Assembly: GCA_020429915.1 (NCBI GenBank)
Contig: JAGQKV010000019.1
Coordinates: 17,282 to 81,281 of the forward strand
Origin: Candidatus Omnitrophota bacterium
GTDB lineage: Bacteria; Omnitrophota; Gorgyraeia; Zapsychrales; Zapsychraceae
DNA: 64,000 nucleotides
Direction of reading: 5' to 3'
The notes under the pieces are model-generated. The model made no database searches. It was not told where the DNA came from and saw nothing but the letters and a program-made list of their open reading frames with translations. A program made the translations under genes and the position numbers. Positions 13,954 to 61,440 of the stretch are shown piece by piece; position 1 is the first letter of the stretch; every line of letters starts with the position of its first letter.

Positions 13954-15717
13954 ATGAAAAGCCATACCTACATCATAAGTGAAATCGCCAGCACGCATGA
14001 GGGAGACTACGCTTATCTGCGTTCTTTAATAAAGGACGTCGCCAGTACCGGTGCGGATGCTATAAAGTTTCAAATTTTCCGTGCCGAGGAAGTTGTGGAT
14101 CCTGCGCATCCTGATTTTGGCGACTTGGAGCGATATCAATTTACCGCGGGACAGTGGAGTGAATTGATTATGCTGGCGCGGGAATATGCCTTGGATGTGT
14201 GGGTGGTCAGCTCTGGCGATTTCAGCCGAACGGTTATCCACGAAAACCGGGATCATATTCACGGAATTGAATTGCATGCATCGGATGTGGGAAATATAGT
14301 GATGCTGGAATTCGCCAATGAATGCGGCAAGCCGATGATCCTTAGTTGTGCCGGTGCGACGTTGAGCGAGATTATCGAGGCCCTGGACGTTTTAGACAAG
14401 GACCGCCAAATAATCTTAATGCATGGCTTTCAAGGGTACCCCACTCATTTGGACGATCTGAACATCGGCCGTATCCGCAGCCTAAAAAAGACGTTTCCGT
14501 TTCATATCGGATTCGCCGATCATATTTCGGGAGACCATCCGATGTCCGTGCTGTCTCCGTTGTTGGCGGTAGGGGCCGGCGCCGACGTGGTAGAGAAACA
14601 CATAACCCGCAATCGTGCCGAAAAACGTGATGACTATTTCAGTTCACTCGATCCGCAGGACTTCAAACGGATGGTAGAGTTGCTGCGCCAATCGGACGCA
14701 GCCCTGGGTACAGAGTTGTTCCGTTTCTCCGAAGCGGAAATCAAGTACCGCCGCGATATGAAAAAGAAAATCAAAGTCATGCAACCGATTGCGCCGGGGG
14801 AAGTCATCCGTCGTGGTCAGGTTGCATTTGTCCGTAACGCCGAGGGGACCGAACCGGTGTCCTTCGGCAGCATACAGCACAAACCCGTGAAGACCGCGTT
14901 GATCCCCGGGACCTTTCTCAGGGAAAGCCATTTACGCAATGAAGTGGGAGTTTTCGTAAACGCCCGTCTGCATTCGACCCGCTTGCCGCGCAAAGCCTTA
15001 AAGCCATTTTACGGGGGGATGACCACCATCGAATACCTGCTGAAGAGACTGACGTCGTATTCGGGGGATATTGGACGCATTGTGTTTGCGACCAGTACCG
15101 AAGAAGAAGACGCGCCGCTTGTCGATTGTGCGCGGAATATCGGTGTAGATTTTCTCCGGGGAGATCCGTTGGACATTATGCTGCGGATGTTGCAGGTGGT
15201 TGATCAATTTGGATTCACCACACTGGTACGGGTGACGGGTGACGATATTCTGGTATCGGGAGAGTACATCGAGAAGGCCCTTGAGTATCATTTTGAGCGA
15301 AATCTGGAATATACCCGGATCGCGGGACTGGCCTATGGAGCGGAATGTGAGATCATCGATACCAGTATGCTAAAACGCATTTATCCGCACGTGGTCCATA
15401 AGAAAGACACGGAATATCTGACGTGGTTCTTGGACGGATCCGGAGTATGCAAAACCGATATCATGCAAGCCCGGCAAGAAGATCAACGGCCGGACTACCG
15501 GCTGACCCTGGATTATCAAGAGGATTTTGATCTGATGCGGGACTTGGTTGAACAGTGTCACCCGAAAATCGAACAGTTTTACATCCCGCTGACAATGATC
15601 AATCAATATTTGGACGGAACACATTTGAATGTTCCGCATACGGATGCTTGGCAAAAAATCAGCCGGGAAGACATTGATGTTTCCTTGAACTATCAATTTG
15701 AGAGGGCAGCCCGATGA
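13954..15717 (+). CDS. Bifunctional fusion: NeuB-family nonulosonic-acid synthase (N-terminal ~320 aa, with SAF domain) plus acylneuraminate-type cytidylyltransferase domain (C-terminal ~260 aa)
   Basis: N-terminal NeuB TIM-barrel motifs (IISEIASTHEGD, DAIKFQ); SAF-like stretch (KVMQPIAPGEVI). The C-terminal half has a cytidylyltransferase signature NARLHSTRLPRKAL (the R..S.RLP.K motif of CMP-NeuAc/CMP-Kdo synthetases); 587 aa. Confidence 0.7.
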   Translation: MKSHTYIISEIASTHEGDYAYLRSLIKDVASTGADAIKFQIFRAEEVVDPAHPDFGDLERYQFTAGQWSELIMLAREYALDVWVVSSGDFSRTVIHENRDHIHGIELHASDVGNIVMLEFANECGKPMILSCAGATLSEIIEALDVLDKDRQIILMHGFQGYPTHLDDLNIGRIRSLKKTFPFHIGFADHISGDHPMSVLSPLLAVGAGADVVEKHITRNRAEKRDDYFSSLDPQDFKRMVELLRQSDAALGTELFRFSEAEIKYRRDMKKKIKVMQPIAPGEVIRRGQVAFVRNAEGTEPVSFGSIQHKPVKTALIPGTFLRESHLRNEVGVFVNARLHSTRLPRKALKPFYGGMTTIEYLLKRLTSYSGDIGRIVFATSTEEEDAPLVDCARNIGVDFLRGDPLDIMLRMLQVVDQFGFTTLVRVTGDDILVSGEYIEKALEYHFERNLEYTRIAGLAYGAECEIIDTSMLKRIYPHVVHKKDTEYLTWFLDGSGVCKTDIMQARQEDQRPDYRLTLDYQEDFDLMRDLVEQCHPKIEQFYIPLTMINQYLDGTHLNVPHTDAWQKISREDIDVSLNYQFERAAR

Positions 15718-17781: not shown

Positions 17782-18317
17782 CCACGGTCGAACTTCTCTC
17801 CGAGGGAACCTTGGAACATTTGGCTGAGAGCCTGGTCGAACTGGATCAGTTCGTCGTGGCGGAAATGGCGGAGCTGTTCTCGAGCGAGCCCTGGCTGACG
17901 CGCCATTTCGCCATGCCCTTGCCGGACAAGTGGAATTTAAGCTGCGTCGCGACGGAAGGTCGGGAAGTGACGGCCTTTGTGATTGGGTCCAGGATTGCGC
18001 CGGATACGGGATATATCCACCGTTTTGTAGTGGCCCCGGCAGCCCGGTCCAAGGGGGTCGGATCCAAATTATTGGATTTCTTTCATAGCAAAGCCGGCGC
18101 ATTAGGGTTGAACCGGATTTTTCTGGAAGTCAACCGCCACAATTCCGGGGCGGTCAAATTTTACCGCAAGAACCGATACCTTGCGTGTGATGATGAACAG
18201 ATTCGGAATTATTTGATCATGAGGGACAAATTGGAGGAGGCCAAACTCGGAGATTCCTTCTATGTAGAAGAGGGATTTCCCGATGAGAAGTGTGTGATGC
18301 AGAGGATGATACGGTGA
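17766..18317 (+). CDS. GNAT-family N-acetyltransferase (PseH-like)
   Basis: GNAT motif A (HRFVVAPAARSKGVGSKLL); start at the ATG at 17766, overlapping the preceding gene by 16 nt (the track ORF began upstream inside the PseG-like gene). Confidence 0.65.
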   Translation: MSGRLATVELLSEGTLEHLAESLVELDQFVVAEMAELFSSEPWLTRHFAMPLPDKWNLSCVATEGREVTAFVIGSRIAPDTGYIHRFVVAPAARSKGVGSKLLDFFHSKAGALGLNRIFLEVNRHNSGAVKFYRKNRYLACDDEQIRNYLIMRDKLEEAKLGDSFYVEEGFPDEKCVMQRMIR

Positions 18318-20098
18318 AGATCATACTAACCCGATTATTCGGTGAATCAGCCGGTGAGAAGTCGTTGTACTTGGGACCGTGGTGCGTCGACTACTCCGCA
18401 GGTCAGCCGGCGGACGTCCGCCGGATCTTGGCGAATCCTTGGGCGGACCGGGAAAAGGTCGATCAAGCCGCCGAAGAATGTTTTGCCTATTACCTGAGGC
18501 TGATTAAAGAATTGACCCCGATATTTAATCGTATTCATGGGGTTAATAAGGAGGATCGCTATTGGAAGATACTTGTTGGTCCTTGGCTGCTGAGATTTTT
18601 GCACACGGCCTATGACAGATACATTCATATTGCCGCCGCCCGGGAGGCCTATGGTGAATTTGAGAGCGCGTGTCTTCAACCGGAAGACTATCTGACGCCA
18701 CAGAACACGCTGGATTTTAATTATCGGGTGTTTGATGATTTCTACAATCACCAGTTGTTTACCCGGATCGTCCGTCATATGGACCTGCCGCATTCCTTGC
18801 GGTCCGCCGTCGCGGGGACGACGAATTCCGGAAACGAGACGGAGTATATCAAACGGAAGGAACGATTGCGCGGCTTGAAGAAGCTGTTGAAGTGGGCCAG
18901 TTTTCGGATGGCGGCCAACCGCCGGACGTATTTGTGCGATGTTTATCTTTCGCGGCGCGACATACGCGACATGATTGTTCAAAGTAAGGGCGCTCTTTGG
19001 CCGAGCCAATACACTTGGGAGAATTCCTATCCGCGTATTTATCATAAGGATGAACTGAAACGTTCCGAGCTGAGCCGCATACCGTGGCGCAATGATTTTG
19101 AAGAACTGTTCGTCTCGTTGTTGGCGGATGAGATCCCGGCGCTTTATCTGGAAGGATATGCGTCGGCTTGTCAGCGCATACACGGCGAAATCCGGCGGAT
19201 GCCCGACCGCATTTTCTCTTCCATAGGCTGGTTCTTTAATGAACATCTGAAGTTCTTGGCGGCAGAAAGTCTGCAAAACGGGGTTCACCTTATCGGCAGT
19301 CAGCACGGAGGGGGATATGGTTCGGGTCGGATTCCGGTAGAGCGGCAGGAACTGGATTTGGTGGACACATATTGCACATGGGGTTGGCACGCTCACGGGT
19401 ATGATACGAGGGTGCTTCCGTCTCCGCGATTGCAAGAACAGTTTCGCCGCGAGCATTTGGCGGAGGCAGGACGTCCGGACATCCTCTTTGTGGGTACCAA
19501 CCATCCCCGCTACACTTACTATTTGTACAGTGTCCCATTGAACAGTCAGTTCGATGATTACATTGGCCAGCGCGCAGACTTTTACCGGGCGCTCGAGGGC
19601 ACCGCGCAGGCCGCCGTCCGTTGGCGATTGTACATGCGTCACTACGGCCGATTTGACCGGCAGCGGCTGGCGGCCGATATTCCGGAGGCGCGGTTCGACG
19701 AGGCGCCTTCGATGGAGGCGGCACTAAAAACAGCGCGACTGGCGGTCGTCGACCATTTGATGACCAGTTATCATGAACTGTTGGCGATGAATTTTCCCAC
19801 GATAGTTATCGGTAACGATCGATTATGGGAGGTGCGCGAAGGGGTGCGTGAATTGTATGAGACCTTACAGGAGGCGGGGATTCTGTTCTCAGACCCCCGG
19901 AAGGCGGCCGAGCATATAAATAAGGTTTACCATGATCCCGCCGCCTGGTGGTTCGGTCCGGAGGCCCAGGCGGCGCGCGGTGCTTTCTGCCGGCAAATGG
20001 CGTGCGGTTCTCCGCACTGGTGTTCCCTGTGGCAGCAGATGATCGCTCAACCGCGCCGCGCGGCGAAAAGCGAAGGAGAATTGAGTCGTGTCTGTTAA
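18314..20098 (+). CDS. Large uncharacterised protein, putative transferase of the glycan locus (GT-B/capsule-transferase-like)
   Basis: ~595-aa ORF with a probable GTG start at 18314 (GTGA overlap with the upstream stop). No family recognisable by eye. Distant architectural similarity to the 714-aa ORF at 40127. Confidence 0.45.
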   Translation: MKIILTRLFGESAGEKSLYLGPWCVDYSAGQPADVRRILANPWADREKVDQAAEECFAYYLRLIKELTPIFNRIHGVNKEDRYWKILVGPWLLRFLHTAYDRYIHIAAAREAYGEFESACLQPEDYLTPQNTLDFNYRVFDDFYNHQLFTRIVRHMDLPHSLRSAVAGTTNSGNETEYIKRKERLRGLKKLLKWASFRMAANRRTYLCDVYLSRRDIRDMIVQSKGALWPSQYTWENSYPRIYHKDELKRSELSRIPWRNDFEELFVSLLADEIPALYLEGYASACQRIHGEIRRMPDRIFSSIGWFFNEHLKFLAAESLQNGVHLIGSQHGGGYGSGRIPVERQELDLVDTYCTWGWHAHGYDTRVLPSPRLQEQFRREHLAEAGRPDILFVGTNHPRYTYYLYSVPLNSQFDDYIGQRADFYRALEGTAQAAVRWRLYMRHYGRFDRQRLAADIPEARFDEAPSMEAALKTARLAVVDHLMTSYHELLAMNFPTIVIGNDRLWEVREGVRELYETLQEAGILFSDPRKAAEHINKVYHDPAAWWFGPEAQAARGAFCRQMACGSPHWCSLWQQMIAQPRRAAKSEGELSRVC

Positions 20099-30690: not shown

Positions 30691-31194
30691 ATGGGACGTG
30701 TCTATTGGATAACCGGCCTGTCCGGCGCCGGAAAAACGACCATTGCCGAAGCCTTGTTGAAGGCTATCCGGGAGGCGGGGCAGTCCGCGGTATTTCTCGA
30801 CGGAGATCAATTGCGGGAGGTGTTCGGCCGGCGCGAGGCCTATCAGCGGGAGGACCGCCTGGATTTGGCCCTGCAGTATGCGCGGTTGTGCAAGATGCTG
30901 AGTGAACAGGGATTGACCGTGATCTGCGCGACGATATCGTTATTTAAGGAAGTGCATGCCTGGAACCGGGAGCACATTCCCGGTTATACAGAAATCTTCC
31001 TGAAAGTCCCATTGGACGTCTTGCGGGCGCGTGATTCCAAGGCTATCTACAGCCAGGCGGCGGAAGGAAAATTGCAGCAGGTCATGGGGGTGGACATCCC
31101 GCATGATGAGCCGCCGAGCCCGGATCTGGAAATCGTCAATGACGGAAGCCGGTCACCGGCGGAGATCGCCAGGATTATTTATGAGCTTCATTGA
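30691..31194 (+). CDS. CysC/APS-kinase-homologous small kinase (Cj1415-like, candidate cytidine diphosphoramidate kinase)
   Basis: P-loop GLSGAGKTT and LDGD motif; 167 aa. First gene of a five-gene block that matches the MeOPN pathway. Confidence 0.75.
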   Translation: MGRVYWITGLSGAGKTTIAEALLKAIREAGQSAVFLDGDQLREVFGRREAYQREDRLDLALQYARLCKMLSEQGLTVICATISLFKEVHAWNREHIPGYTEIFLKVPLDVLRARDSKAIYSQAAEGKLQQVMGVDIPHDEPPSPDLEIVNDGSRSPAEIARIIYELH

Positions 31195-33532
31195 AACCAC
31201 ATTCAAATTCGGGACCAAAGCGGAAACACTGGAACGGATCGGACCGTTACTGGAAACGATCCGCTGTCCCCAGTTGTTTTATTTTACCGTCACCGATTGG
31301 CGGACCGACGCGCAGGGTTGTCTGAGCAAGGCCCGCGCAATGTATGCTGATGCGGTCCGGATGGTGGTCCGCAGCAGCGCCCAAGGGGAGGACCGCCAAG
31401 AATCATCTATGGCCGGCGCGTATTGCAGCGTCCTGAATGTGACTCATGACAAGCTGACCGAAAGCATCGAGACGGTCATAAAATCGTATGGTGGTCACGG
31501 CGGTGATCAGGTCCTTATTCAGCCGATGATATCGGATATTGCCGTCAGCGGAGTTATTATGACGCGCAATCTGGAAGACGGCGCCCCGTACTATGTGATC
31601 AACTACGATGATCTGTCCGGCAAGACCGATTCGATTACCGGAGGCGTCGGCGTCCATAAGACGGTTTTGGTAAGCCGTGACTGCGACGAGGCCAACTTCG
31701 ATTCGCGCCGGTTAAAGGCCATGGTGCGGCTGGCCAAGGACGTGGAAAAGATTACTCGCGACACACCCGTCGATATCGAATTCGCGCTGGGCGAGGACCT
31801 TGTTCCCTATTTATTTCAGGTGCGGCCCATCAGCGTGTGTCAGAACTGGGACGGCCGTATGGCGGATCAGGTCCGGGAATCCATTCCGCACGTCGAACGG
31901 CTCGTTCGCGAGCAGTCGGCGCGGCAACCCGGCATTTACGGTGACCGGACGATCCTGGCCAATATGTCCGACTGGAATCCCGCCGAGATGATCGGGGTGC
32001 ATCCGGACCCGTTGGCGGCGAGCCTCTACCGTGAATTAATCACCAAGTATGTGTGGCAGCGCGCGCGGGCCGAAATGGGATACTATGGGGTCGACGCGGA
32101 ACTGATGACTTTTCTGTACGGTCAGCCGTATATTGACGTTCGCCTCAGTTTTAATTCTTTTTTACCGGAAGACTTATCGACGGACGTGTCCGAGAAACTG
32201 GTGAACGCGTGGCTGGACCGCTTGGACCGTCATCCGGAACTGCATGACAAGGTGGAGTTCGACGTCGCCCAGACGTGTCTGGATTTTTCTTTTGACCGCG
32301 ATTTGGACGAACGCTATCCCGGATTGCTCAATAAGGCGGAGCGCGAGGAATTCCGTACGGCGTTGAGGACTTTGACGCAGCGGGCGTTGACGCTGGATTC
32401 CGGAAATACGCTGTCGCAGGCGATGGAGCGGATCCGCGGGCTCGCGGAGAGGCAGCGGCAGGAGCGGCATCCTACGTTAAAGGACCTGGTGGAGGAGTGC
32501 AAGCTGGAGGGAACGCTGCCGTTTTCGATGATCGCCCGGCACGCGTTTATTGCGGAGAAGATTCTCCGATCGGCGGTGGAATCCGGGGCCTTAACCGAAG
32601 AACGGCTGCAGCAGTTCAAGACGTCCGTGCACACGGTGACGAGCGCGATGGCCGGCGATTTGAAGAAGGTCGCCGAGCAGACCATGCCGCAGGAAGAATT
32701 TCTTAAGGAGTACGGTCACCTGAGACCCGGAACGTATGATATCCAGTCCCTGTCCTACCGGGACAGGTCCGCGCTGTTCGCGGGAGGCATCCGGTTGCCG
32801 GAACGGCGGCACACCGAAGATTTTGAACTAAACCCGGAAGAGGCACGGCGTTTGAATGCCCTGTTGGCCGGGGCCGGATTGACGGTGGCGGCGACGGATC
32901 TTCTGGTACATGCCCGTCTGGCGATCGAAGGCCGGGAATATGCCAAGTTCGTCTTTACCCGCAATATATCCGAGATCCTGGAAATGCTTGTCGGATGGGG
33001 CGAAAGGCACGGGTACTCCCGGGAAGATTTGGCGTGTTTGACCATCCACGATTTTCTGTCGGTTGAGGACCCTCAGCACCTGGCTGGCCGAATAGCAGAG
33101 GTCAGCGATGCCGTCCGCCGGGAACAGGCGCTCAGCCGGCATTTAAAACTCAGCTATCTGATTCGCGGCGTGCGCGACATATATATCGTTCCCCTGCATC
33201 GCAGCGCCCCCAATTTTATCGGGCAGGTCCGGATTACCGGAGAGACCGTGATCCTCGACGCGCATTCCGGGGCGGAAGTGGATATTGAAGGTAAGATCGT
33301 TTGTATCGAAAATGCGGACCCCGGTTTCGATTGGATATTCACCAAGGGTTTAAAGGCGCTGATCACAAAGTTCGGCGGGGCGAATTCCCATATGGCGATC
33401 CGCTGCGCCGAATTCGGATTGCCGGCCGCGATCGGTTGCGGGGAGGAAGTCTTTCAGCGTGTCGTGGACGCCGGACATGTCGAGCTGAACGGTTCGGATA
33501 AGACGTTGCGGCCGATCGGAATGGAGTCGTGA
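31181..33532 (+). CDS. PPDK/PEP-synthase N-terminal (ATP-grasp) domain plus C-terminal PEP-utilising swivel phosphohistidine domain, with no PEP-binding TIM barrel; rifampin-phosphotransferase / Cj1418 (L-glutamine kinase)-like
   Basis: 783 aa. The mobile-domain signature GGANSHMAIRCAEFGLPAAIGCG lies at the extreme C-terminus (the PEP synthase arrangement would put it in the middle). Start at the ATG at 31181, overlapping the upstream stop by 14 nt. Confidence 0.7.
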   Translation: MSFIETTFKFGTKAETLERIGPLLETIRCPQLFYFTVTDWRTDAQGCLSKARAMYADAVRMVVRSSAQGEDRQESSMAGAYCSVLNVTHDKLTESIETVIKSYGGHGGDQVLIQPMISDIAVSGVIMTRNLEDGAPYYVINYDDLSGKTDSITGGVGVHKTVLVSRDCDEANFDSRRLKAMVRLAKDVEKITRDTPVDIEFALGEDLVPYLFQVRPISVCQNWDGRMADQVRESIPHVERLVREQSARQPGIYGDRTILANMSDWNPAEMIGVHPDPLAASLYRELITKYVWQRARAEMGYYGVDAELMTFLYGQPYIDVRLSFNSFLPEDLSTDVSEKLVNAWLDRLDRHPELHDKVEFDVAQTCLDFSFDRDLDERYPGLLNKAEREEFRTALRTLTQRALTLDSGNTLSQAMERIRGLAERQRQERHPTLKDLVEECKLEGTLPFSMIARHAFIAEKILRSAVESGALTEERLQQFKTSVHTVTSAMAGDLKKVAEQTMPQEEFLKEYGHLRPGTYDIQSLSYRDRSALFAGGIRLPERRHTEDFELNPEEARRLNALLAGAGLTVAATDLLVHARLAIEGREYAKFVFTRNISEILEMLVGWGERHGYSREDLACLTIHDFLSVEDPQHLAGRIAEVSDAVRREQALSRHLKLSYLIRGVRDIYIVPLHRSAPNFIGQVRITGETVILDAHSGAEVDIEGKIVCIENADPGFDWIFTKGLKALITKFGGANSHMAIRCAEFGLPAAIGCGEEVFQRVVDAGHVELNGSDKTLRPIGMES

Positions 33533-33534
33533 AC

Positions 33535-34152
33535 ATGATAAAGATCGGTATCACCATGCGCGTAGTGGAGGCTCAAGGATACCGGGAACCCCGGGACGCC
33601 CTCGCCCAGGATTGGACGGATTTTATGGCGGTGGCCTTTCCCGAATGTCTGTGGATGCCCGTTCCCAATGTGGGTAACCGTGTGGTTGAGTATGTGCGGG
33701 CCTGGGATCTCGACGCCTTTATTTTCTCCGGGGGAAATGATTTGGGGTCGTCGCCGCGGCGCGATCAGACGGAGCAGGCCCTGCTGAAGTATGCCGTGGA
33801 GAACCGGCTGCCTGTCTTCGGCGTCTGCCGCGGGCTGCAACTGCTCCATCAGTATTACGGAGGGGCCTTGGAGCCGTGTGATGCCGGCGTGCACGTGGCC
33901 GCGCAGCATGATGTGGATTTGAACGGAGAAACGTATCGGGTGAATTCCTATCATAATTTCGGTATCCGCGAGACCGCCGTCAGTCCCGCCCTCACGGTTA
34001 TCGCACGAACCGGCGACGGTTGGGTGGAGGGGGTGGATCTGACCGACGCGCCGGGCCGGGCGGTGATGTGGCATCCCGAACGCGACCGACCCTACCGGAA
34101 ACGGGATATTCAATTGATGCGCGAATGTTTATTGGAAGGAGTACCCTCATGA
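33535..34152 (+). CDS. Class I glutamine-amidotransferase-like (peptidase C26 / gamma-glutamyl hydrolase) protein, Cj1417-like
   Basis: GATase1 nucleophile elbow GVCRGLQLL and a C-terminal His region (WHPE); 205 aa. Confidence 0.7.
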   Translation: MIKIGITMRVVEAQGYREPRDALAQDWTDFMAVAFPECLWMPVPNVGNRVVEYVRAWDLDAFIFSGGNDLGSSPRRDQTEQALLKYAVENRLPVFGVCRGLQLLHQYYGGALEPCDAGVHVAAQHDVDLNGETYRVNSYHNFGIRETAVSPALTVIARTGDGWVEGVDLTDAPGRAVMWHPERDRPYRKRDIQLMRECLLEGVPS

Positions 34153-34901
34153 AGGCTGTGATTCTGGCCGCCGGGCGCGGTTCCCGCATGAAAGGATTAA
34201 CCGACGAGAAACCGAAATGTCTGAACGAGCTGCTGGGGCGGCCGCTGTTTGACTGGCAGCAGGAATCCCTGCGTGAGGCCGGCATCACGGATATCGTCGT
34301 GGGCCGCGGCTACCGGAAGGAATTGCTGACCGGAGATTTTCAAACCGCCGACAATGACCGCTGGGACCAGACGAATATGGTGTATACGCTGCTGTGTGCC
34401 GCACCGTATTTGCGCGCGGACACGTGCGTGGTGTCCTACGCCGACATCGTGTATCATCCGGACCACGTCCGGGCCTTGATGGCGGCCGCCGGCGACGTGG
34501 TAATCACCTATGACACGCTGTGGCGGCCGTTATGGGAATTGCGGTTTCCGGATCCGCTGGCCGATGCCGAGACATTGCGTATCGACGAACGCGGTATCAT
34601 TCAGGAAATCGGCCAAAAGGCGGCGTCTCTCGAGGAGATTCAAGGGCAGTATATGGGATTGCTGAAATTCACGCCGCAGGGTTGGGGGCAAGTCGAAGAA
34701 CTGCTCAACCAAATGCCCCCCGCCGATTTGGACCGGCTGGATATGACGTCGTTGTTGCAAAAGGTTATCCGTCGCGGAATTCCGATCAATACGGTCGGAG
34801 TGAAGGGGCGATGGTGTGAAATCGATAGCGAAACGGATCTTGACGTTTGCACGAAACACGCAAACACCGATCAATGGGAACATGACTGGAGATGGGAGTA
34901 G
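34149..34901 (+). CDS. Sugar/phospho-substrate nucleotidyltransferase (NTP_transferase fold; LicC/Cj1416-like cytidylyltransferase)
   Basis: N-terminal AVILAAGRGSRM motif; 250 aa; ATGA overlap start at 34149 (track ORF started upstream at 34020). Confidence 0.8.
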   Translation: MKAVILAAGRGSRMKGLTDEKPKCLNELLGRPLFDWQQESLREAGITDIVVGRGYRKELLTGDFQTADNDRWDQTNMVYTLLCAAPYLRADTCVVSYADIVYHPDHVRALMAAAGDVVITYDTLWRPLWELRFPDPLADAETLRIDERGIIQEIGQKAASLEEIQGQYMGLLKFTPQGWGQVEELLNQMPPADLDRLDMTSLLQKVIRRGIPINTVGVKGRWCEIDSETDLDVCTKHANTDQWEHDWRWE

Positions 34902-34904
34902 AGG

Positions 34905-35684
34905 ATGAGTACATCAATCAAACATGGTGATTTTAGTCTTTTGGCCGAGAATTATTCTAAATATCGGCCGGGCTATAGTGAAGATATTCTGGAATTGGTT
35001 TTGACCAAGGTGGGCAAGCCGATATCCGAACTCGATTTCGTCGATGTGGGCGCCGGAACGGGCATCTGGACGCGGATGGTGGCGGAGGCCGGTTGCCGCA
35101 CCACGGCGGTTGAGCCGAACAATGAAATGAGAAAGTATGGCGAGAGTACGGATCCGCATTTGAAAATTAATTGGGTGAAAGGGGCCGCTGAGTCGACGAC
35201 GCTGCCGGACAGCAGCTGCGATCTGGTCAGTATGGCTTCCTCGTTTCATTGGCCTGATTTTGACAGCGCGGTTCATGAATTTCATCGGATCTTGCGGCCG
35301 CAGGGATATTTCGTGGCCCTGTGGAATCCGCGCTTGATCGAAGTCAATCCGATGTTGGTTACGATAGAGAACAAATTGAAAGAATTGGTGCCGCATATGA
35401 AGCGCAAGTCATCCGGCCGTTCAGAATTCTGTGATAATTTGACTGACCGGCTGTTGCAAAGCGGTTGCTTCCAGAATGTGATTTACATGGAAGGCCGTCA
35501 CGTCGAGAGAATGTCCCCGGAGAGGTATATAGGGATATGGAATTCGGTTAATGATATCCGCAGTCAGGCCGGGGAGGAAAAGTTCCAGGAATTTATGGAT
35601 TTTGTCGAACGAACGATAGCGGGACTTGATGCCATTGAAGCAACGTACCTTACACGGGCGTGGTTGGCTCAAGTAAAGAAATAG
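34905..35684 (+). CDS. Class I SAM-dependent methyltransferase (Cj1419/Cj1420-like)
   Basis: SAM-binding motif I VDVGAGTG; 259 aa. Confidence 0.8.
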   Translation: MSTSIKHGDFSLLAENYSKYRPGYSEDILELVLTKVGKPISELDFVDVGAGTGIWTRMVAEAGCRTTAVEPNNEMRKYGESTDPHLKINWVKGAAESTTLPDSSCDLVSMASSFHWPDFDSAVHEFHRILRPQGYFVALWNPRLIEVNPMLVTIENKLKELVPHMKRKSSGRSEFCDNLTDRLLQSGCFQNVIYMEGRHVERMSPERYIGIWNSVNDIRSQAGEEKFQEFMDFVERTIAGLDAIEATYLTRAWLAQVKK

Positions 35685-35728
35685 TTTTCAAGATTATACC
35701 GGTGCTCCATAAAAAAGAGGAGGTTTAA

Positions 35729-36231
35729 ATGTCAAATTTGAAGAGAGTTTTGGTTCTGACCTTGGTCTTGATGCTCTCAGTCGGGGGGGGGACGCATTTG
35801 CTAAATCCGGAAGCGCGGTAACCCCTTACGTTAAATCCAGGTATACGTCGAGTTCATCGTATGCCCATTTTCATGTATACGTTTCGAATATTACCTCGAG
35901 CAGCATCAATGTATCGGTTACATTTTACGACGAAAGTGGAACCATCGTCACGGATGGTGATGATAGTCCCAGCACGGGATCGATACGAAATGATACCGGC
36001 ACGGTAACAAATTGGGATGATGCACCCACGTCATCAAGTGTGTCGTTTACCTTGGGAGGCAATGAAACGACAGCGATCCATTTTCGGCCGTCTTCTTTGA
36101 CTTCAGGGTACGCTATTATCGAATGGAGCCAGGATGGCGACAATGTGGTGGGGTTGGTCGCCAGCATTCTGAGAGAGCACTATGGCGATGGATTCAGCGT
36201 TGAGCCCATAAACAACGGGCTGCCGTTCTAA
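35729..36231 (+). pseudogene. Frameshifted (candidate phase-variable) gene for a secreted Ser/Thr-rich ~167-aa protein; the frame is broken at a G9 homopolymer
   Basis: RBS AAGAGGAGG then ATG at 35729 encoding signal peptide MSNLKRVLVLTLVLMLSVGGG. A G9 run (35783-35791) is followed by a stop at 35819. A +1 G (G10) or -2 G (G7) would fuse to the downstream frame (open to 36231) giving ...DAFAKSGSAVTPYVKS...EPINNGLPF. The tail of that frame is the track ORF 36040..36231. Confidence 0.5.
35783..35791 (+). repeat. Homopolymeric G9 tract, candidate slipped-strand phase-variation site
   Basis: Nine consecutive G read directly from the sequence, located at the frame break of the 35729 ORF. Confidence 0.8.
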
Positions 36232-36306
36232 ATAGTTTTAAAATAATATAGTGGGGTGCCGGTATCACTCTAGGCTGTATTCAGGTAACTCTAAACAGGA
36301 TAATGT

Positions 36307-37440
36307 ATGCACGAGGGTCCTAAGATAATTTTTCTGGTCTGCGCCGGGCGCACCGGTTCCAGTTTTCTGCATACGTTGCTGGATTCGCATCCGGAGGTGT
36401 TAATGCTGCCGATGGAATTGTCTTTTTACCGGATGTGGGACCGGCTGGGCTGTGATCAGGTTAAGGACGCTGAGGAAATGGTCCGCCGCTGGACCGAGCA
36501 ATCGAAGCTGGCCAAATTGGCGGACAACGTCAATTACGGTATCGACGGCTCCACCAACGCGTATACGAGTTGTGATTTCCCGATCTTCCGGGACAGGTTT
36601 TTGTGTCTTCTGCGGGAGACTTCGCTCAGCCGCCGGGATGTCTTTTACGCGATCCACCGGGCGTATGCCGATGCCACCGGGGGGGATCTGTCCCGGTATC
36701 AGGTGATCATCGAGTTTTCCGCCATTTACATCGATATCGGCCGTGCCGTGGAGGACTTTCGGGAACCGCGGTTTATCCAGGTGGTGCGCGACCATCGGGC
36801 GACGTATGCCTCGATCAAACAGCATTTTTTGAACACGCGCCGCGGATTGTTCAACCTGCGGGGCAAGACACTGGAGCAAAAGTTGTCATTAATCCGGATC
36901 TTTAACAATTTTATCCGGACGATCAACAAACTGCGCGCGGGATTCGCCGCGCTCCCCGCTGATCATGTGCTGTACGTGAAACAGGAGGACTTGCATCTGA
37001 ATCTTGAGCCGACCATGCGGGAGGTCGCCGGGTGGTTGCAGATCGCATATGAGCCGTGCCTGCTGCACAGCACCCTGGCCGGTCATCCCTGGCAGGGCAA
37101 CAGCGCTTTCGGTAAGGCCGTCGCCGGAGCGACCCCGGAGGTGACCCGCCGCTGGATGACGACACTCAGTCCGCAGGAAATCCGGGTCATCGAGTATGTA
37201 TTCGGTGATGACATGGAGCGATTCGGTTACGCGTATTCCGCCGCTCGGCGGCCTTCGCGGTGGCAGGTTACGTGTGGAGGATTAATTCCTTTCCGCGGAG
37301 AGCTGGCCATCCTCGGCCGAAGCGCCAGACATATTGCCTTGGATATTATGAAGTGGCCGCTGCGCCTGGGGGCCTATCTGATGAGCCGGTTCTATCTGCT
37401 ACGGATCATCGCCGACGGAAAGAGGTTCGTGAATGGCTAA
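36307..37440 (+). CDS. Sulfotransferase-family protein (second copy)
   Basis: N-terminal P-loop-like FLVCAGRTGSSFL (5'-PSB) and VVRDHRATYAS (3'-PB RD.R) motifs; 377 aa. Confidence 0.6.
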   Translation: MHEGPKIIFLVCAGRTGSSFLHTLLDSHPEVLMLPMELSFYRMWDRLGCDQVKDAEEMVRRWTEQSKLAKLADNVNYGIDGSTNAYTSCDFPIFRDRFLCLLRETSLSRRDVFYAIHRAYADATGGDLSRYQVIIEFSAIYIDIGRAVEDFREPRFIQVVRDHRATYASIKQHFLNTRRGLFNLRGKTLEQKLSLIRIFNNFIRTINKLRAGFAALPADHVLYVKQEDLHLNLEPTMREVAGWLQIAYEPCLLHSTLAGHPWQGNSAFGKAVAGATPEVTRRWMTTLSPQEIRVIEYVFGDDMERFGYAYSAARRPSRWQVTCGGLIPFRGELAILGRSARHIALDIMKWPLRLGAYLMSRFYLLRIIADGKRFVNG

Positions 37441-39177: not shown

Positions 39178-40130
39178 CATCAGGCTTAACCTTTGGGGAA
39201 GTCAGCAGCGCCGATCTTTGGAATGATTTGAACCGGCATGCACCGGCGGGAAATGTCTTCTTACGCTGGGATCTCCTGCAGGCGCTTCCGGTACGCGCCG
39301 TGTGTCACGGATGTTTCGAGGAAGGCCGGTTGATCGCCGGGTGTCCTTTTTTTTACAACCGGGACGACGGAAGTCCAGAGGGCATCAATCCGTTTATGAT
39401 GTATCAGGGATTGATCATCCGTGATGCTGAGTCCGGTACGCATCATCACGCGATCACGCGGAATTTCGAGATCCTGACGGAATTTCTGCCGTACCTCGCG
39501 GGATTTCGGCCAGTCGCGGGTATGCAGTCCTGGCGGCACAGAGATATGCGCCCATTTCTCTGGCACAATTACCATGCGCCTGAGAAGGGGATGTTTGTGG
39601 TCAAACCGAAATACACCGCGGTGATAGATTTGACGGAGTATGCGTCTTTCGGGGACTATGTGGCATCGACGCGGAGCATACGCCAACGGGAGCTGAAAAA
39701 GGCGCGCGCGATCCGGATCAAGAACAGCGCCGATGTTCAGGCGCTGGTAACGCTGCACGACTTGACTTACGGCCGGCAGGGGAAGGACGTTGCCGATCCC
39801 TTGGACTTCCGGCGCGCCGTCGTCACCGATGCGCTGGAGAAGGGGTACGGCGCGTTGTGGGAGGCGAATACGGAAGCGGGAGAGCGGGTGTCCATGATTT
39901 TCACGTTAGCGGATGAACAAAGCGCTTATTACTTGTTTGGGGCCAACCATCCCGATTACCGGTCGACCGGGGGATCGACCAAACTGATGTTCGCCTGTAT
40001 CGAACAGGCCATGGAACAGGGTTTGGCGGCCTTTGATTTCTGCGGCGTTAATTCGCCCAACCGGGGAGACTATAAAATCAGTTTTAATGCGCAACTCAAA
40101 GAATATTGCACGTTCCGATTGGATGGATGA
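39174..40130 (+). CDS. GNAT-fold acyltransferase, FemAB/CelD-like
   Basis: 318 aa; the C-terminal acyl-CoA N-acyltransferase-like region resembles FemAB/BioF2-like families. Confidence 0.5.
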   Translation: MTSGLTFGEVSSADLWNDLNRHAPAGNVFLRWDLLQALPVRAVCHGCFEEGRLIAGCPFFYNRDDGSPEGINPFMMYQGLIIRDAESGTHHHAITRNFEILTEFLPYLAGFRPVAGMQSWRHRDMRPFLWHNYHAPEKGMFVVKPKYTAVIDLTEYASFGDYVASTRSIRQRELKKARAIRIKNSADVQALVTLHDLTYGRQGKDVADPLDFRRAVVTDALEKGYGALWEANTEAGERVSMIFTLADEQSAYYLFGANHPDYRSTGGSTKLMFACIEQAMEQGLAAFDFCGVNSPNRGDYKISFNAQLKEYCTFRLDG

Positions 40131-42250
40131 GCATGCTGTCGCTAAATATAGTTAGAGACAAATCCGGAATCCGGCCGGTCTCGACGGTGATCGTGGACCG
40201 TGTGGGCTGGCGGATGTGGGCGTATTTGATGTCGGGCCGGCGTTTGTCCGGGACACGGCGGCTGCTGGTGATGCCGTGTGCCTCGGCCTGGACATCCTGG
40301 CGCGGCCCGTCGACCGGGGGGGCAACCGGCCGGTCCTGGACGGAAAGGGCCGCGCTGGCCATGCTTCGCCGCCGTTATCCGGATGTGACGGTAGAGCGGC
40401 TGGGGGCCCGGGATTATCGCAGCGTGCTGACCGAAGCCGGTGTGTTGGCCGCTTCTTTGGCGGACACGCTGGTGGATCAATGTGACCATACGGGAACCCG
40501 CTATATGGCCATGTACAAGGGCCTCTTAGGCGGCAGCGACGATGTTCTGATCGCGATCAAGAAATTGATCTGCGCGGATCTGGAGGATTTGATTTGTTCG
40601 CTGCTGTTGGCGGCGAAGTTCGATCCGCGGGACAGCGTAGTGCTCATCGATTCCGCCAGAAATGCCAGTTTGATCGAGACACTGATCGATCAGGGGGGCA
40701 TCCGCAAACAAGCCGATGGTCAGGATTGCCGGTTCCAGGGCTCTCCGGCAAACCGGCAGGCGCAGGCGGCCGGCGCGGCCGCGGTGAATACCTTGTTGTT
40801 GTGGGGCATGATACTCAGGACACTGGTCACGCGGTGCCGATTCACCGCCCCCGCAAATATTATTCGTGCCAAAGTGGCTTGCCGGAATCTGTATAAAACC
40901 GAACGCCGCCGTCCCGGGGATACCCATTGCCTCAACTGGGGTGATATGGCCTTTCTGTTGGACGAGACTCATTTTACGGTGGACGACTTTGTGGTGTTGG
41001 CCAGCAACCGGCCGCCGGATACAAAAATCCGTCACGCGGACTCCTATCGGCAGTCCGATCTGCGGGTCTACGACATTCGCAAGGCTCGTCTGCCGTTGAA
41101 TCGGGCCGCCAAACGATTGGCCTCCCAAGGGATCACGGGAATGCGGCTGATATGCTCCGACCATCCCGGGGCCGTGGCCCGGATCGCCTGCGGCTATCTG
41201 CCGTTTTTCCTGGCGGAATACAATAAATGGCTGGCCATTTGCGCGAATGTCCGCTTCACGGCGTATTTGGACATCAACGAACATTCGTATGCGCATATCA
41301 TTCAAAAGATGGCCTTGTCCGAATGCGGCGCACACATTGTTTATTTGCCGCACGGGTATATGGAGCGGATCGGGCCGCAAAAATCTTTTATGTCCTACGC
41401 CTTGATGCTGTCTCCCGGGGAACATCTGGTGCGGGCGTTCGGCCAGTATTGGCCCGGCGACATGGCGGTTGAGATCGTGGGCAACATGAAGAATGAAGCG
41501 GTGGGAGCCGGGGAAGGCGAGCTGGCCGACCAGGGACTTCAAAAGCTGTTCACCGAGGCCCGTCGCGACGGGGGACGCGTGATTACGGCCGTTTTCGGAT
41601 CTTGTCTGGAAGATGAACTGCTCATGGACCGTTATGAACGTATGCTGGACTTTTTGGCTGAAGTCATGGAGGAAAATCCCGGTGTACAGGCCTTTGTCAA
41701 GTTCAAGACACCGCGCCAGACGGAGAAGTTCCGGAGAAAGCGGATGTTTGATCTGCTGGAAGGGCTGTTAAAAGGCGGCCGGGTGCATCTGGTGGACGGA
41801 GACCGTTACCAGGCAACGGTTCAGGCCATGGCCGTGCAATCGGATGCCGTCATCAGCGTCTCCGGCTACAATCAATCGGTCAGCACGGCGTGGGTGGAAT
41901 CCATGTTGCTGGGAAAACCGTCTTTGGCCTTTAACCCGGAGGCAAGCTGCGGTGAGACGCCTCTGTTGGATGATTATTACGATCAGTATATCTTTCGCTC
42001 GGAGGCGAAACTGAAGGCGGCTTTGGACCGCGTTCTCAACGGACACGCGGGAGACGGGAGTGTCAGCCCTATGGCGAAGCGGGATTTTGATCCCTTCTGT
42101 GACGGCGGCACCATGAACCGGATTCGACGGGCCTTATACGCTTTCGCGGAGAACCCGGGGCAATACAGTTGTGGGATTCCTTCGGTCGGCGCAATACGTG
42201 CGGCGGCCGGGGATAAATATTGCCGCCAGGAAGGAATATGTGCCTCATGA
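40127..42250 (+). CDS. Large putative glycan-modifying transferase (uncharacterised) whose 5' region shows a reading-frame discontinuity at a G7 tract
   Basis: ~707-aa ORF. Between ~40214 and 40322 the annotated frame has an out-of-frame composition (R/S/W/T-rich; codon position-1 GC ~50%, position-2 ~75%). The +2 frame has a coding-like signature (position-1 GC 89%, position-2 53%; ..VGVFDVGPAFVRDTAAAGDAVCLGLDILARPVDRGG). That frame rejoins the main frame exactly at G7 (40316-40322). The C-terminal 550 aa are coding-like. Confidence 0.5.
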   Translation: MSMLSLNIVRDKSGIRPVSTVIVDRVGWRMWAYLMSGRRLSGTRRLLVMPCASAWTSWRGPSTGGATGRSWTERAALAMLRRRYPDVTVERLGARDYRSVLTEAGVLAASLADTLVDQCDHTGTRYMAMYKGLLGGSDDVLIAIKKLICADLEDLICSLLLAAKFDPRDSVVLIDSARNASLIETLIDQGGIRKQADGQDCRFQGSPANRQAQAAGAAAVNTLLLWGMILRTLVTRCRFTAPANIIRAKVACRNLYKTERRRPGDTHCLNWGDMAFLLDETHFTVDDFVVLASNRPPDTKIRHADSYRQSDLRVYDIRKARLPLNRAAKRLASQGITGMRLICSDHPGAVARIACGYLPFFLAEYNKWLAICANVRFTAYLDINEHSYAHIIQKMALSECGAHIVYLPHGYMERIGPQKSFMSYALMLSPGEHLVRAFGQYWPGDMAVEIVGNMKNEAVGAGEGELADQGLQKLFTEARRDGGRVITAVFGSCLEDELLMDRYERMLDFLAEVMEENPGVQAFVKFKTPRQTEKFRRKRMFDLLEGLLKGGRVHLVDGDRYQATVQAMAVQSDAVISVSGYNQSVSTAWVESMLLGKPSLAFNPEASCGETPLLDDYYDQYIFRSEAKLKAALDRVLNGHAGDGSVSPMAKRDFDPFCDGGTMNRIRRALYAFAENPGQYSCGIPSVGAIRAAAGDKYCRQEGICAS
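40316..40322 (+). repeat. Homopolymeric G7 tract at a frame-switch point, candidate phase-variation site
   Basis: Seven consecutive G; G6 or G9 would place the upstream coding-like frame in register with the downstream ORF. Confidence 0.7.
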
Positions 42251-50141: not shown

Positions 50142-50210
50142 CCCGGGGAAGCCACACATCGGGCGTTGAACCGCCTGAAAGGTGCTTCACATAACGTTAT
50201 CCCACCACGT

Positions 50211-51698
50211 ATGCGTATGGATAAGGAAAAGTTAAGTCCTTTTGATTGGTTGAATCTCTTGGGGTTGAGCGGCATCGCCGTCATATGTTACTGCTATGTG
50301 TGGGGCTATTCCACCTTCGCCGAGAAACACGTACAGTTGCCATTCTTAAACTTTCCGATTTTTGTGGGCGAGATGCTGCTGATGTTTTGCGTAGGGGTGT
50401 ATTGCCTCCGTTGGCGGCCGCGTACAGAGGGAGTACGGCTGGGTCACCTGTTGATTATGTCATACGCAGCTTTTATTCTGGCCAAAGCCTTTTGGGGGTA
50501 CGCCAAGTGGGGGCCGCTGGCTCTGCGGCATGCGGCCCTTTTGTATTATCCTGTGTTCATCTTTTTCGCTCAGACGTTTTTCCGGAAAGAGTTCTTCAGC
50601 AAACCGGTGCGCTATCTTTTGACCATGATTGTGCTGGGCACTCTCGTGACCCAGTCGTTCTCACGATATTTTGTGCTGACGCTGTTTCTTTTGGCGGTGA
50701 TATTAATCCGATCCCTGCCTGAAAAAGGCGGCCGGCTGATATTTGCCGGGATTTTATTATTGGGTACCCCTTATCATTATTTCTTCGAAACCGCCCGGAT
50801 GATGATTCTGGGAAATATCGTGAGCGGATTTTATTTGTTCTTGGTGGCTTGCAGTGTCTTGAAGTGGCGGTGGCAATATAAAACCGGACTGCTGGTCGTG
50901 GGAATGGTGGTGCTGATTTCACTGGCCGTTCGGATAGCCGGGTATGACCGCGTCAGGTCGATTGTAGATTTCCGGCGTATGCATAAAGTTTTTCAGAAGT
51001 ACGACCAAAAAGTCCAGGCGCGCATCGACGGTTTTGAATTGATGCCCCGTGAATCCGTTCAGTTCTACAATCCCAACTCCTCAATCAAAGAGGGGCCGAT
51101 AGACGGTGAGGGTATGGATCCATTAGCGGCCTCTTTGAACGGGAGTGCGGCAGGCGCAGGTCAGGAGGCGGTAACGGAAACCCCATCACCACCTGTGCGG
51201 GAATCTTCGGTGACCGATACGAATAACGCGGTGTTTCGATTGATGATTTGGAGGGATATGTGGCAGGAGTATATGAGAGAATTCTCCTGGTTCGGATTTG
51301 ATTTTGGCAAACCTTTGCGGTCCGTCAGTCTTGAAATATTGAAGTGGGGCCGGGGAGAGTGGGCCCGGGACGGCTGGGTGTCTCCGCACAATTCATTCTT
51401 TCATATTATTTATCGAACAGGTCTTATGGGGCTGTTCTTTATCGGAACGGTTATGTGGACATTGGCAGGAATGATTCGTATTTGCTTGGACCGCAAATCC
51501 GTGACAGGTATTCTGCTGTGCGGAATAATCATCAACTGGTTTGTGGCTTCCAATTTTCTCGTCGTTCTCGAGCTGCCTTACACAGCCATTCCGATCTGGA
51601 GCCTATATGGACTGACGATGGCATACTGTTCCGGATTAAAACGGCAAAGTCGGAAAGATATCGACACGACTGAAGCGCCTCAACTTATGAGTGTATAG
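50211..51698 (+). CDS. Polytopic membrane protein with an O-antigen ligase/polymerase (Wzy_C)-like domain
   Basis: 10+ hydrophobic segments with a periplasmic loop; Wzy_C-like HNSFFHIIYRTGLMGLFF motif. Confidence 0.6.
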   Translation: MRMDKEKLSPFDWLNLLGLSGIAVICYCYVWGYSTFAEKHVQLPFLNFPIFVGEMLLMFCVGVYCLRWRPRTEGVRLGHLLIMSYAAFILAKAFWGYAKWGPLALRHAALLYYPVFIFFAQTFFRKEFFSKPVRYLLTMIVLGTLVTQSFSRYFVLTLFLLAVILIRSLPEKGGRLIFAGILLLGTPYHYFFETARMMILGNIVSGFYLFLVACSVLKWRWQYKTGLLVVGMVVLISLAVRIAGYDRVRSIVDFRRMHKVFQKYDQKVQARIDGFELMPRESVQFYNPNSSIKEGPIDGEGMDPLAASLNGSAAGAGQEAVTETPSPPVRESSVTDTNNAVFRLMIWRDMWQEYMREFSWFGFDFGKPLRSVSLEILKWGRGEWARDGWVSPHNSFFHIIYRTGLMGLFFIGTVMWTLAGMIRICLDRKSVTGILLCGIIINWFVASNFLVVLELPYTAIPIWSLYGLTMAYCSGLKRQSRKDIDTTEAPQLMSV

Positions 51699-57903: not shown

Positions 57904-59075
57904 TGCGTGTCCTGGTCGGCCACAATGCCTACCAAAACTTCGGCGGCGAGGACGCGGTGGCCGCTTCCGAAACCCGGCTGCTGCGCGAACGGGGCCATGA
58001 CGTCCACGAGTACAACCGCTCAAACGCCGAACTCAACCGGTTGAGCCTGAAGGACAAGACCCGTTACCTGTGGTATCTCGGCTGGAATGAAGAGAGTTAT
58101 CAGCAGGTCCGCACCCTGATCCGCAATGTCCGCCCCGAAGTCGCCCACTTCCACAATATCTATTTCATGATGAGCCCGGCGGTCTATCATGCCTGCCGCG
58201 CCGAAGGCGTTCCCGTTGTGCAGAGCCTGCACAATTTCCGGCCGCTGTGCGCCAACGGATTGCTCTTCCGGAATAATCATGTGTGTGAAGATTGCCTGAG
58301 CGGTTCGCTGATGCCGGCGGTCCTGCACCGCTGTTCGCAGAATTCGCCGATCATCAGCGCCATGGTGGTCCGCATGCTGCGCAGTCACCGGAAGATGAAG
58401 ACCTGGCATGAAAAAGTCAACGTCTACATCACCGCCACCGAGTTTACCCGGCAAAAATACGCCGGGTCCGGTTTTGACGCGGACAGGATCTTCGTGAAGC
58501 CAAACTTTGTCGAAGACCCCGGTGATGTCCCGGCGCAGGACCGGGGATATGCGCTCTATGTCGGCCGGCTCAGCGACGAAAAAGGGGTCGATGTGATGAT
58601 CCGGGCGTGGAAAGACCTGACGGACATCCCGTTGAAGATCGCCGGCGACGGGCCCGGCCGCCTGTACCTGTCGGGATATATTCAACGTCACGCCATCAAA
58701 CACGTCACGTTGCTCGGTCATGTCGATGATGAAAAATACCGCGAGCTGATGGGCGGCGCCCGTTATTTGGTGCTGCCGTCGATCTGCTATGAGAATTTCC
58801 CGCGGATTGCCGTGGAGGCCCTGGCCTACGGTCTGCCGGTCCTGGCCAGCCGGCTCGGAAGCCTGGAAGAAGTGATTCATCACGACGAGAACGGCATGCT
58901 GTTCGAACCGGGCAAGGAGGAGGCGCTGGCCGCCGCGGCGAAGACGCTGTATCAGTCTTCCGATCTGCCCCGGATGCGCACGGCGGCGCGGCAAAAGTAT
59001 GCGGATGAATACTCACCTGACAGGAATTACGAGCAATTGCTGGCGATCTACGAGCGCGCACTGCATACAGCATGA
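57903..59075 (+). CDS. Family 4 (GT-B) glycosyltransferase
   Basis: C-terminal EX7E motif region ENFPRIAVEALAYGLPV; 390 aa. Confidence 0.85.
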   Translation: MRVLVGHNAYQNFGGEDAVAASETRLLRERGHDVHEYNRSNAELNRLSLKDKTRYLWYLGWNEESYQQVRTLIRNVRPEVAHFHNIYFMMSPAVYHACRAEGVPVVQSLHNFRPLCANGLLFRNNHVCEDCLSGSLMPAVLHRCSQNSPIISAMVVRMLRSHRKMKTWHEKVNVYITATEFTRQKYAGSGFDADRIFVKPNFVEDPGDVPAQDRGYALYVGRLSDEKGVDVMIRAWKDLTDIPLKIAGDGPGRLYLSGYIQRHAIKHVTLLGHVDDEKYRELMGGARYLVLPSICYENFPRIAVEALAYGLPVLASRLGSLEEVIHHDENGMLFEPGKEEALAAAAKTLYQSSDLPRMRTAARQKYADEYSPDRNYEQLLAIYERALHTA

Positions 59076-60687: not shown

Positions 60688-61440
60688 ATGTTTGAGACGG
60701 TCAATATTTTGGGCGTCGATATCGCGGTAACGACTTTGGAACGGACCGCGGACCGGGTCCGGCAATGGATTGCCGACCGGAAAAAGGTCTATTTGTGTTT
60801 TGCCCCTGTATCGACATTGGTGGACTGCCGGGATAATGAGAATTACCGTCAGATTGTGAACGGTGCGGCCCTGGTTAATCCCGACGGTGTCCCGGTGGTG
60901 TGGGTGGCGCGTGCCAAGGGAAAGAAGGATATGCAACGCACCGGAGGCCCGGATTTTATGGCTCTGACGCTAAAAGAAAGCACGTCTGAAGGGCCCCGAC
61001 ATTTCTTTTACGGCGGAAACGAGACCACCAAGGACCGGCTATTAAAAATGGTACAGCAGCGTTGGCCGCAGGCGGTCGTCGCCGGCGCGATTGCACCGCC
61101 GTTTAGGCAGAGCGGGGAGATGGAAGATCCGTCCGTCATTGACGAGATCAACGCGGCCTCTCCGGATATTCTGTGGGTCGGTCTGGGCTCCCCGAAGCAA
61201 GATGTTTGGATGGCGAATCACCGGAATCAGCTCACCTGTCCGGTTATTTGTGGGGTAGGGGCCGCATTTGATTTCATCGCCGGCACCAAACCGATGGCTC
61301 CGAACTGGATGCGGTCCAACGGTCTGGAGTGGCTTTTTCGTTTGGGTTGTGAGCCGCGACGGCTGTGGCGGCGCTACTTGATCGGTAATTGTAAATTCAT
61401 TTACTATCTCCTTACCACAGAAATGCAGTCGCATGGCTAA
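60688..61440 (+). CDS. WecB/TagA/CpsF-family (GT26) glycosyltransferase
   Basis: FETVNILGVDI N-terminus and NPDGVPVVW, GLGSPKQD motifs typical of GT26. The alternative start at 60667 adds 7 aa. Confidence 0.8.
   Translation: MFETVNILGVDIAVTTLERTADRVRQWIADRKKVYLCFAPVSTLVDCRDNENYRQIVNGAALVNPDGVPVVWVARAKGKKDMQRTGGPDFMALTLKESTSEGPRHFFYGGNETTKDRLLKMVQQRWPQAVVAGAIAPPFRQSGEMEDPSVIDEINAASPDILWVGLGSPKQDVWMANHRNQLTCPVICGVGAAFDFIAGTKPMAPNWMRSNGLEWLFRLGCEPRRLWRRYLIGNCKFIYYLLTTEMQSHG

Follow-up and report, generated by a model that had tools for sequence, protein, structure and literature searches.

Switching of gene expression by frameshifts within homopolymers is textbook biology. In the poly-G/C contingency genes of Campylobacter jejuni, Helicobacter, Neisseria and Haemophilus, a run of about nine G lies in the 5' part of the coding sequence, the product is exported and the gene sits inside a surface-glycan cluster. 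The length of the run sets expression ON or OFF by frameshift, and both lengths are found in otherwise identical DNA. These features have counterparts at the locus described here, a small gene split by a G9 homopolymer within the window, the whole 64,000-nt stretch of DNA that was analysed; the second tract length there comes from a single contig. Nine is also the modal length of the poly-G/C tracts of C. jejuni, which PMC3401435 attributes to their mutational pattern. Unlike the described contingency genes, however, this one belongs to an uncultivated Omnitrophota bacterium, its tract is the sole long one in 64 kb and does not belong to a set of genes with such tracts, orthologues do not conserve it, and a single OFF length dominates every assembly.

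A second comparison concerns the neighbourhood of the gene. In C. jejuni, cj1415-cj1418 are MeOPN biosynthesis genes and cj1421 and cj1422 encode phase-variable transferases (PMC3907429). As with Cj1421/Cj1422, the poly-G gene in the window directly follows a cassette with the Cj1415-Cj1418 domain types, here joined by a methyltransferase. In contrast to those transferases, its predicted product is a 140-aa secreted beta-sandwich protein with no transferase domain, the gene is an insertion missing from the syntenic Omnitrophota cluster, and the conserved gene at that position encodes a Sulfotransfer_3 protein, so that the resemblance is one of position only.

Two further systems bear on the locus. 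The predicted beta-sandwich fold is shared with TM1070 (PDB 1nc7) and the Anabaena sensory rhodopsin transducer (2ii7), with no relationship at the sequence level; compared with these proteins, the family in the window is larger and secreted and has hallmark motifs of its own. To our knowledge, TM1070 itself has no established function. The locus also resembles cases of transcriptional-slippage rescue (endosymbiont poly-A tracts, IS elements, dnaX), in that a long homopolymer splits an otherwise intact gene and one OFF genotype is fixed. Known examples, however, involve A/T runs conserved across divergent lineages, whereas here the run is of G and an in-frame allele exists.

Reading frames at the G9 run

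The locus comprises the following features.

35717-35723, + strand: Shine-Dalgarno-like GAGGAGG, 5 nt 5' of the ATG at 35729-35731 (read from the sequence)
35729-35821, + strand: 5' ORF carrying the G9 run, 30 aa, ending in TAA at 35819-35821
35783-35791, + strand: G9 homopolymer, exactly nine G, codons 19-21 of the ORF
35791-36231, + strand: downstream frame with the end of the predicted signal peptide (DAFA/K) and the whole mature, predicted beta-sandwich domain, ending INNGLPF with TAA at 36229-36231

The 5' ORF begins MSNLKRVLVLTLVLMLSV, the predicted n- and h-regions of a signal peptide, and the tract encodes glycine residues of its c-region while its length fixes the reading frame. With nine G, the product is a 30-aa peptide made up of MSNLKRVLVLTLVLMLSV, Gly-Gly-Gly from the tract and an out-of-frame tail, THLLNPEAR, followed by the stop. 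The predicted signal peptide and its AFA/K cleavage motif were identified by eye. The downstream frame is offset by +2/-1 from that of the ATG and stays open from 5' of the tract to the TAA at 36229-36231; the chance of such a 146-codon open frame is about 0.0016. It contains no in-frame ATG, GTG or TTG 5' of 36040, and it therefore cannot be expressed alone with a signal peptide.

When the tract was rebuilt in silico, a continuous ORF was obtained at two lengths only, G7 with 166 aa and G10 with 167 aa, while G8, G9 and G11 all left the frames apart and gave truncated products. The sequence-only reading had proposed this arrangement of ribosome-binding site, ATG, signal peptide, G9, stop and second open frame, with fusion at G10 or G7; all of its coordinates were confirmed, as was its fused ORF of about 167 aa. 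Its description of the downstream sequence as the '+1 frame' is right in the sense that one added DNA base restores the frame, but not for a ribosome, which would need a -1 slip.

The G9 is the only G/C run of at least 8 in the 64-kb window. Under a first-order Markov model, 1.07 G/C runs of at least 9 are expected in 64 kb, with a probability of 0.67 of at least one, and runs of at least 7 are under-represented in the window (6 observed, 12.6 expected). The run by itself is thus unremarkable. Its position is not chance, since it coincides exactly with the point where the frame of a conserved gene breaks, and the downstream frame of that gene matches the family HMM. The five other runs in the window are all 7 nt long (G7 at 36679, 40316, 43167 and 45736; C7 at 46558), and all lie in frame within long ORFs, namely those of the sulfotransferase, a 714-aa protein without assigned function, a radical-SAM gene and a DegT aminotransferase.

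Protein family and inserted segment

A search with the fused protein returned eight homologues, 8/8 of them 145-195 aa long, encoded by a single ORF and equipped with a signal peptide, which share a mature N-terminus of the form A-K-S-G-S-A-I/V-x-P and the C-terminus I-N-N-G-L-P-F. A profile search of 1.84 billion representatives extended the family to 580 members at E <= 1e-3 (384 at <= 1e-10), and nearly all of the best 150 of these 580 are single ORFs of 140-190 aa that cover the whole profile. When the window was translated in all six frames, the family HMM matched the downstream frame only (positions 20-168, E = 8e-51), missing exactly the signal peptide, which lies in the ATG frame. The fused ORF covers profile positions 1-169, as does P0001, the in-frame protein described below. 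Every invariant or near-invariant family residue is retained in the downstream frame, and the window holds a single copy of the family. The two ORFs are therefore a single gene for a secreted Ser/Thr-rich protein of a widespread but uncharacterised family, as the sequence-only reading had supposed: orthologues are single ORFs, and the HMM recognises the downstream frame. Serine and threonine together make up 29% of the mature protein, against a family mean of 21%.

The window protein has no significant match in Pfam, NCBIfam or PHROGs; the sole Pfam match, DUF5382, is sub-threshold (E = 0.0037; 18.2 bits, the cut-off being 25). A sequence profile search of the PDB with the family likewise gave nothing significant. 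An AlphaFold2 model built from a 137-sequence alignment (mean pLDDT 95, pTM 0.84) shows an N-terminal signal helix followed by a beta-sandwich. From this model we confidently predict that the mature protein of about 140 aa is a beta-sandwich with a fold closest to that of TM1070. The family hallmarks are A-x-S-G-x-A-x-I-P at the mature N-terminus, S-N-I-T, I-E-W and the C-terminal I-N-N-G-x-P-F. The annotation gap between the neighbouring genes thus conceals a real gene.

Several smaller observations concern the family as a whole. In 93% of 137 members, its single invariant Asn (N53 of the window protein, about 35885-35893) is part of an N-x-S/T motif, and in 90/137 of N-I-T. The motif resembles an N-glycosylation sequon but may have a purely structural role; four N-x-S/T motifs are present in the window protein. 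Elsewhere the family occurs as tandem paralogue arrays, with three copies at 206-2265 of the contig L008, which is short and carries only the paralogues, and four copies plus an unrelated gene at 299-4637 of L009. Scanning genome contigs with the family gave two distant homologues only, and a family-pattern scan of JGI metagenome contigs gave 478 pattern matches, of which 0 were confirmed.

The genes around the split gene are listed here.

30691-31194: adenylyl-sulfate kinase (APS-kinase-like, PRK05541; domain match)
up to 33532: PPDK_N + PEP-utilizers gene (domain match)
33529-34152: Peptidase_C26/GATase gene (domain match)
34149-34901: NTP_transf_3 gene (domain match)
34905-35684, + strand: class I SAM methyltransferase (Pfam Methyltransf_11), last gene of the MeOPN-like cassette
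35685-36306, + strand: inserted segment, consisting of the small gene and two AT-rich spacers, missing from the related cluster L010
36307-37440, + strand: Sulfotransfer_3-family gene, the downstream neighbour

At the level of domains, the four genes at 30691-34901 are the set of C. jejuni Cj1415-Cj1418, to which the methyltransferase is added. The closest relative of that methyltransferase that we found (66% identical) comes from the Omnitrophota MAG GCA_018062515.1 (L010), where the order is DegT, APS kinase, PPDK-like, GATase, NTP transferase, methyltransferase and Sulfotransfer_3, then GFO/IDH/MocA and CTP_transf_3, with an extra acetyltransferase gene between Sulfotransfer_3 and GFO/IDH/MocA. 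The methyltransferase and Sulfotransfer_3 genes of L010 overlap, with nothing between them. In the window, the GC content of the small gene is 0.49 and that of its two spacers 0.34-0.36, compared with 0.57-0.60 for most neighbours. Judged by this gene order, the small gene is a lineage-specific insertion of about 620 nt and does not belong to the MeOPN-like cassette.

The positional parallel that had been drawn with the poly-G MeOPN transferase genes of C. jejuni does not hold up, given a product predicted to be a beta-sandwich rather than a transferase and a gene that is missing from the L010 cluster. Both the size of the product (166 aa) and its predicted fold argue against a transferase of the Cj1421/Cj1422 type, a distinction drawn from these two properties. 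Cj1421 and Cj1422 are much larger proteins. As the insertion is absent from L010 and the family occurs in unrelated contexts, the likeness in position appears coincidental. A link between the family and nonulosonic-acid clusters, hinted at by the window and by the homologue-bearing contig L002, was also considered and was rejected: the homologues in L003 and L009 lie in unrelated, non-glycan contexts, and the gene is missing from L010.

The segment absent from L010 has at both its borders, at 35679-35691 and 36230-36242, a copy of an imperfect 13-nt direct repeat, AAATAGTTTT[C/A]AA. The two copies span the stop codons of the methyltransferase and the small gene, and they may be an insertion scar or, being short and AT-rich, a product of chance. 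The MeOPN-like (phosphoramidate) cassette itself is complete and in the same order in two Omnitrophota MAGs (window, 30691-37440; L010, 1663-7952). One might speculate that the conserved Sulfotransfer_3-family gene encodes a candidate transferase for a PAPS-like activated donor.

Tract length across contigs and relatives

The proteins encoded on either side of the small gene are identical to MCA9394935.1 and MCA9394936.1 of a Candidatus Omnitrophota/Omnitrophica MAG; as these accessions are consecutive, no protein is annotated between the flanking genes. The exact 30-aa G9 product was found on 53 public contigs (78 index blocks), and exact look-up placed the flanking methyltransferase on 49 contigs and the sulfotransferase on 52. 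Since the 30-aa product arises only from exactly nine G, the contigs that carry it count the G9 state. One ENA MEGAHIT contig is 100% identical to the window across the 3-7 kb fetched, G9 included, and a second also has G9, with 1 SNP in 6215 nt. The 53 G9 contigs, from Logan and ENA, sample a clonal population and are not independent, and the two ENA contigs have nearby ERZ accessions. G9 is nevertheless the true consensus of a near-clonal, often-sampled population and not an error of this assembly.

A different length was found once. P0001, an in-frame protein of 166 aa, is encoded on a 1287-nt Logan contig (L001, from SRR23924732) that matches window positions 35106-36394 without mismatch, the sole difference being G7 in place of G9. 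The tally is thus one G7 contig against 53 with G9, and the G7 allele comes from a single contig, probably of low coverage, in which a homopolymer under-call is possible. As L001 differs only at the tract, no other site in this near-clonal background is as variable. The tract thus appears to vary in length, and it is this length that determines whether the full protein can be encoded. The sequence-only reading had suggested looking for an ON-length tract in related genomes, and this G7 in otherwise identical DNA is the one positive. Its description of a 'classic' contingency gene fits the frame-setting G9 and the variant allele but is overstated for a single variant among 54 contigs.

Other lengths were sought in several ways. 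Exact look-ups of the G4, G6, G10, G12 and G13 products in a collection of 15 billion proteins found none of them, in a search that is blind to G8 and G11, whose products of 24-25 aa are too short for gene calling. A DNA pattern allowing G4 to G16 between exact flanks gave 0 matches in JGI metagenome contigs. A literature search on the run accession SRR23924732 found no paper.

No orthologue examined keeps the tract of the window. It is absent from the homologue P0002 (L002) and from that of Fluctibacter (L004), and among 137 family members GGG runs are rare and scattered. The nearest relative reached through the upstream methyltransferase is the one of only 66% identity, and strains of intermediate divergence were not found. 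The homologue in L003, from another Omnitrophota MAG, has an in-frame G7 (GTG GGG GGG, 10087-10093) just after its signal peptide. In a 92%-identical orthologue, L013, the corresponding sequence (about 707-713) reads GTT GGA GGG, the G7 being broken by synonymous changes, and we therefore attribute the L003 run to chance codon usage. A G9 in L008 (2275-2283) lies outside any gene, 10 nt past the stop codon of the third paralogue, where it makes up the 5' arm of a hairpin resembling a terminator (GGGGGGGGG...CCCTCCC, then a T-rich stretch). The idea of recurrent G tracts at the 5' ends of family genes was accordingly rejected: the L003 run is broken in L013, GGG is scattered and the L008 G9 is non-coding.

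A candidate switch in a surface-glycan island

At about even odds (a probability of roughly 0.5), we favour a slipped-strand ON/OFF switch whose consensus state is OFF. In this lineage, a large surface-glycan cluster acquired the small gene between its methyltransferase and sulfotransferase genes, and a pure G run encodes Gly-Gly(-Gly) of the signal-peptide c-region. At G9, the start codon and signal peptide are out of frame with the mature domain, only the 30-aa peptide would be made and the gene would be OFF; at G7 or G10, the full pre-protein would be made and the gene would be ON. Changes in length would come about by slipped-strand mispairing at replication. As a run of nine G is intrinsically unstable, a minority of the cells in large populations should be ON, and the locus would act as a switch that is OFF most of the time. 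Nine being the modal tract length in C. jejuni (PMC3401435), a tract can be mutable and still keep a constant G9 consensus. In favour of a switch are the ON and OFF lengths in identical backgrounds and a gene that is otherwise pristine; counted against it are the single variant among 54 contigs, the absence of G10 among the lengths seen and the lack of the tract in orthologues.

A serious rival, and the main one, is that the gene is a recently fixed frameshift pseudogene; this we regard as possible, at clearly less than even odds. A horizontally acquired accessory gene would have slipped from G7 to G9 and the change would have swept the clonal population, with no meaningful switching, so that the G7 contig would either preserve the ancestral allele or be a rare revertant, if not an artefact. 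Such a history would suit the near-uniformity of G9 (53 contigs to 1), the dispensability of an insertion absent from the syntenic L010 cluster, a GC content below that of the neighbours, orthologues without the tract (the L003 G7 not being conserved) and the lack of an annotated protein between MCA9394935.1 and MCA9394936.1. Against this, the 146 codons are intact with all conserved residues, as are the ribosome-binding site and start codon, and hence any inactivation must be very recent; moreover, a G9 run keeps mutating back and forth whatever its history. At a divergence of about 1 SNP per 6 kb, secondary decay would not yet be visible, and a switch and a pseudogene are therefore not separable here.

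Two other explanations leave the G9 functional or deny it altogether. Programmed recoding would account for the uniform G9 of the 53 contigs: either RNA polymerase would slip and make G10 out of G9 in the mRNA, or ribosomes would shift by -1 on G GGG GGG. Long homopolymers are known sites of transcriptional slippage. The sequence GTC GGG GGG GGG ACG also gives a zero-frame X XXY YYZ heptamer, a formal match only, and -1 is the direction needed. However, the established bacterial cases of transcriptional slippage involve A/T runs, and all-G slippery sites are not known to be good -1 shifters. Folding of 126 nt revealed no convincing stimulatory structure (z = -0.72 against shuffles), and we found neither a Shine-Dalgarno-like stimulator 5' of the tract nor an Rfam match. 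The frameshift is not conserved, all homologues being unshifted single ORFs, and an in-frame G7 allele exists; recoding is on balance very unlikely. The sequence-only reading had also allowed for a homopolymer sequencing error, in which case the true tract would be G10 or G7 and the gene intact. Homopolymers are indeed the commonest sites of indel errors, and PGAP-style annotation put no protein there. Yet the same G9 recurs in 53 contigs from Logan and ENA, among them Illumina-style contigs (MEGAHIT k141) that match the window exactly over 3-7 kb, which excludes an error in the window, and the G10 product is absent from the 15-billion-protein collection. This explanation is effectively refuted.

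The type of switch is itself known; what is new here is the uncultivated Omnitrophota host and the unannotated protein family, and none of the papers searched pairs 'Omnitrophota' with 'phase variation'. If the tract does switch, homopolymer phase variation would reach beyond host-adapted pathogens into a candidate phylum that is environmental and known only from metagenomes, and a widespread unannotated secreted family would be marked as a target of fluctuating selection (for example by phage, predators or host contact). Should the gene be merely a recent pseudogene, the finding would be an ordinary one. The locus also shows that tract-length alleles can be counted across public assemblies by exact look-up of frame-specific products.

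A slipped-strand switch might also reach beyond the small protein. In the G9 state, 485 nt (35822-36306) lie untranslated between the premature stop and the sulfotransferase start; this stretch is not C-rich (C 0.21, G 0.25). When the gene is OFF, untranslated RNA in the middle of an apparent long same-strand operon could have a polar effect and reduce the expression of the sulfotransferase and nonulosonic-acid genes that follow. A single homopolymer would in that case govern phase variation of the secreted beta-sandwich protein and of the surface-glycan decoration alike. We consider such a wider contingency switch in this uncultivated Omnitrophota nanobacterium an unlikely, if conceivable, extension.

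The window contains no Rfam family and no tRNA, and almost all of it, from 8400 to 63000, is one same-strand surface-glycan island of more than 50 kb. The island includes two APS kinases (8979-9539 and 30691-31194), two NeuB genes, one of them fused to CTP_transf_3 (13954-15717), WbqC, several DegT aminotransferases, a UDP-glucose dehydrogenase with a CBS domain, an ABC exporter, a radical-SAM gene and an asparagine-synthase-like amidotransferase. Large ORFs without a Pfam match lie at 18290-20098, 40106-42250, 50166-51698 and 59072-60586, and a Bac_transf initiating transferase is encoded at 61433-62860.
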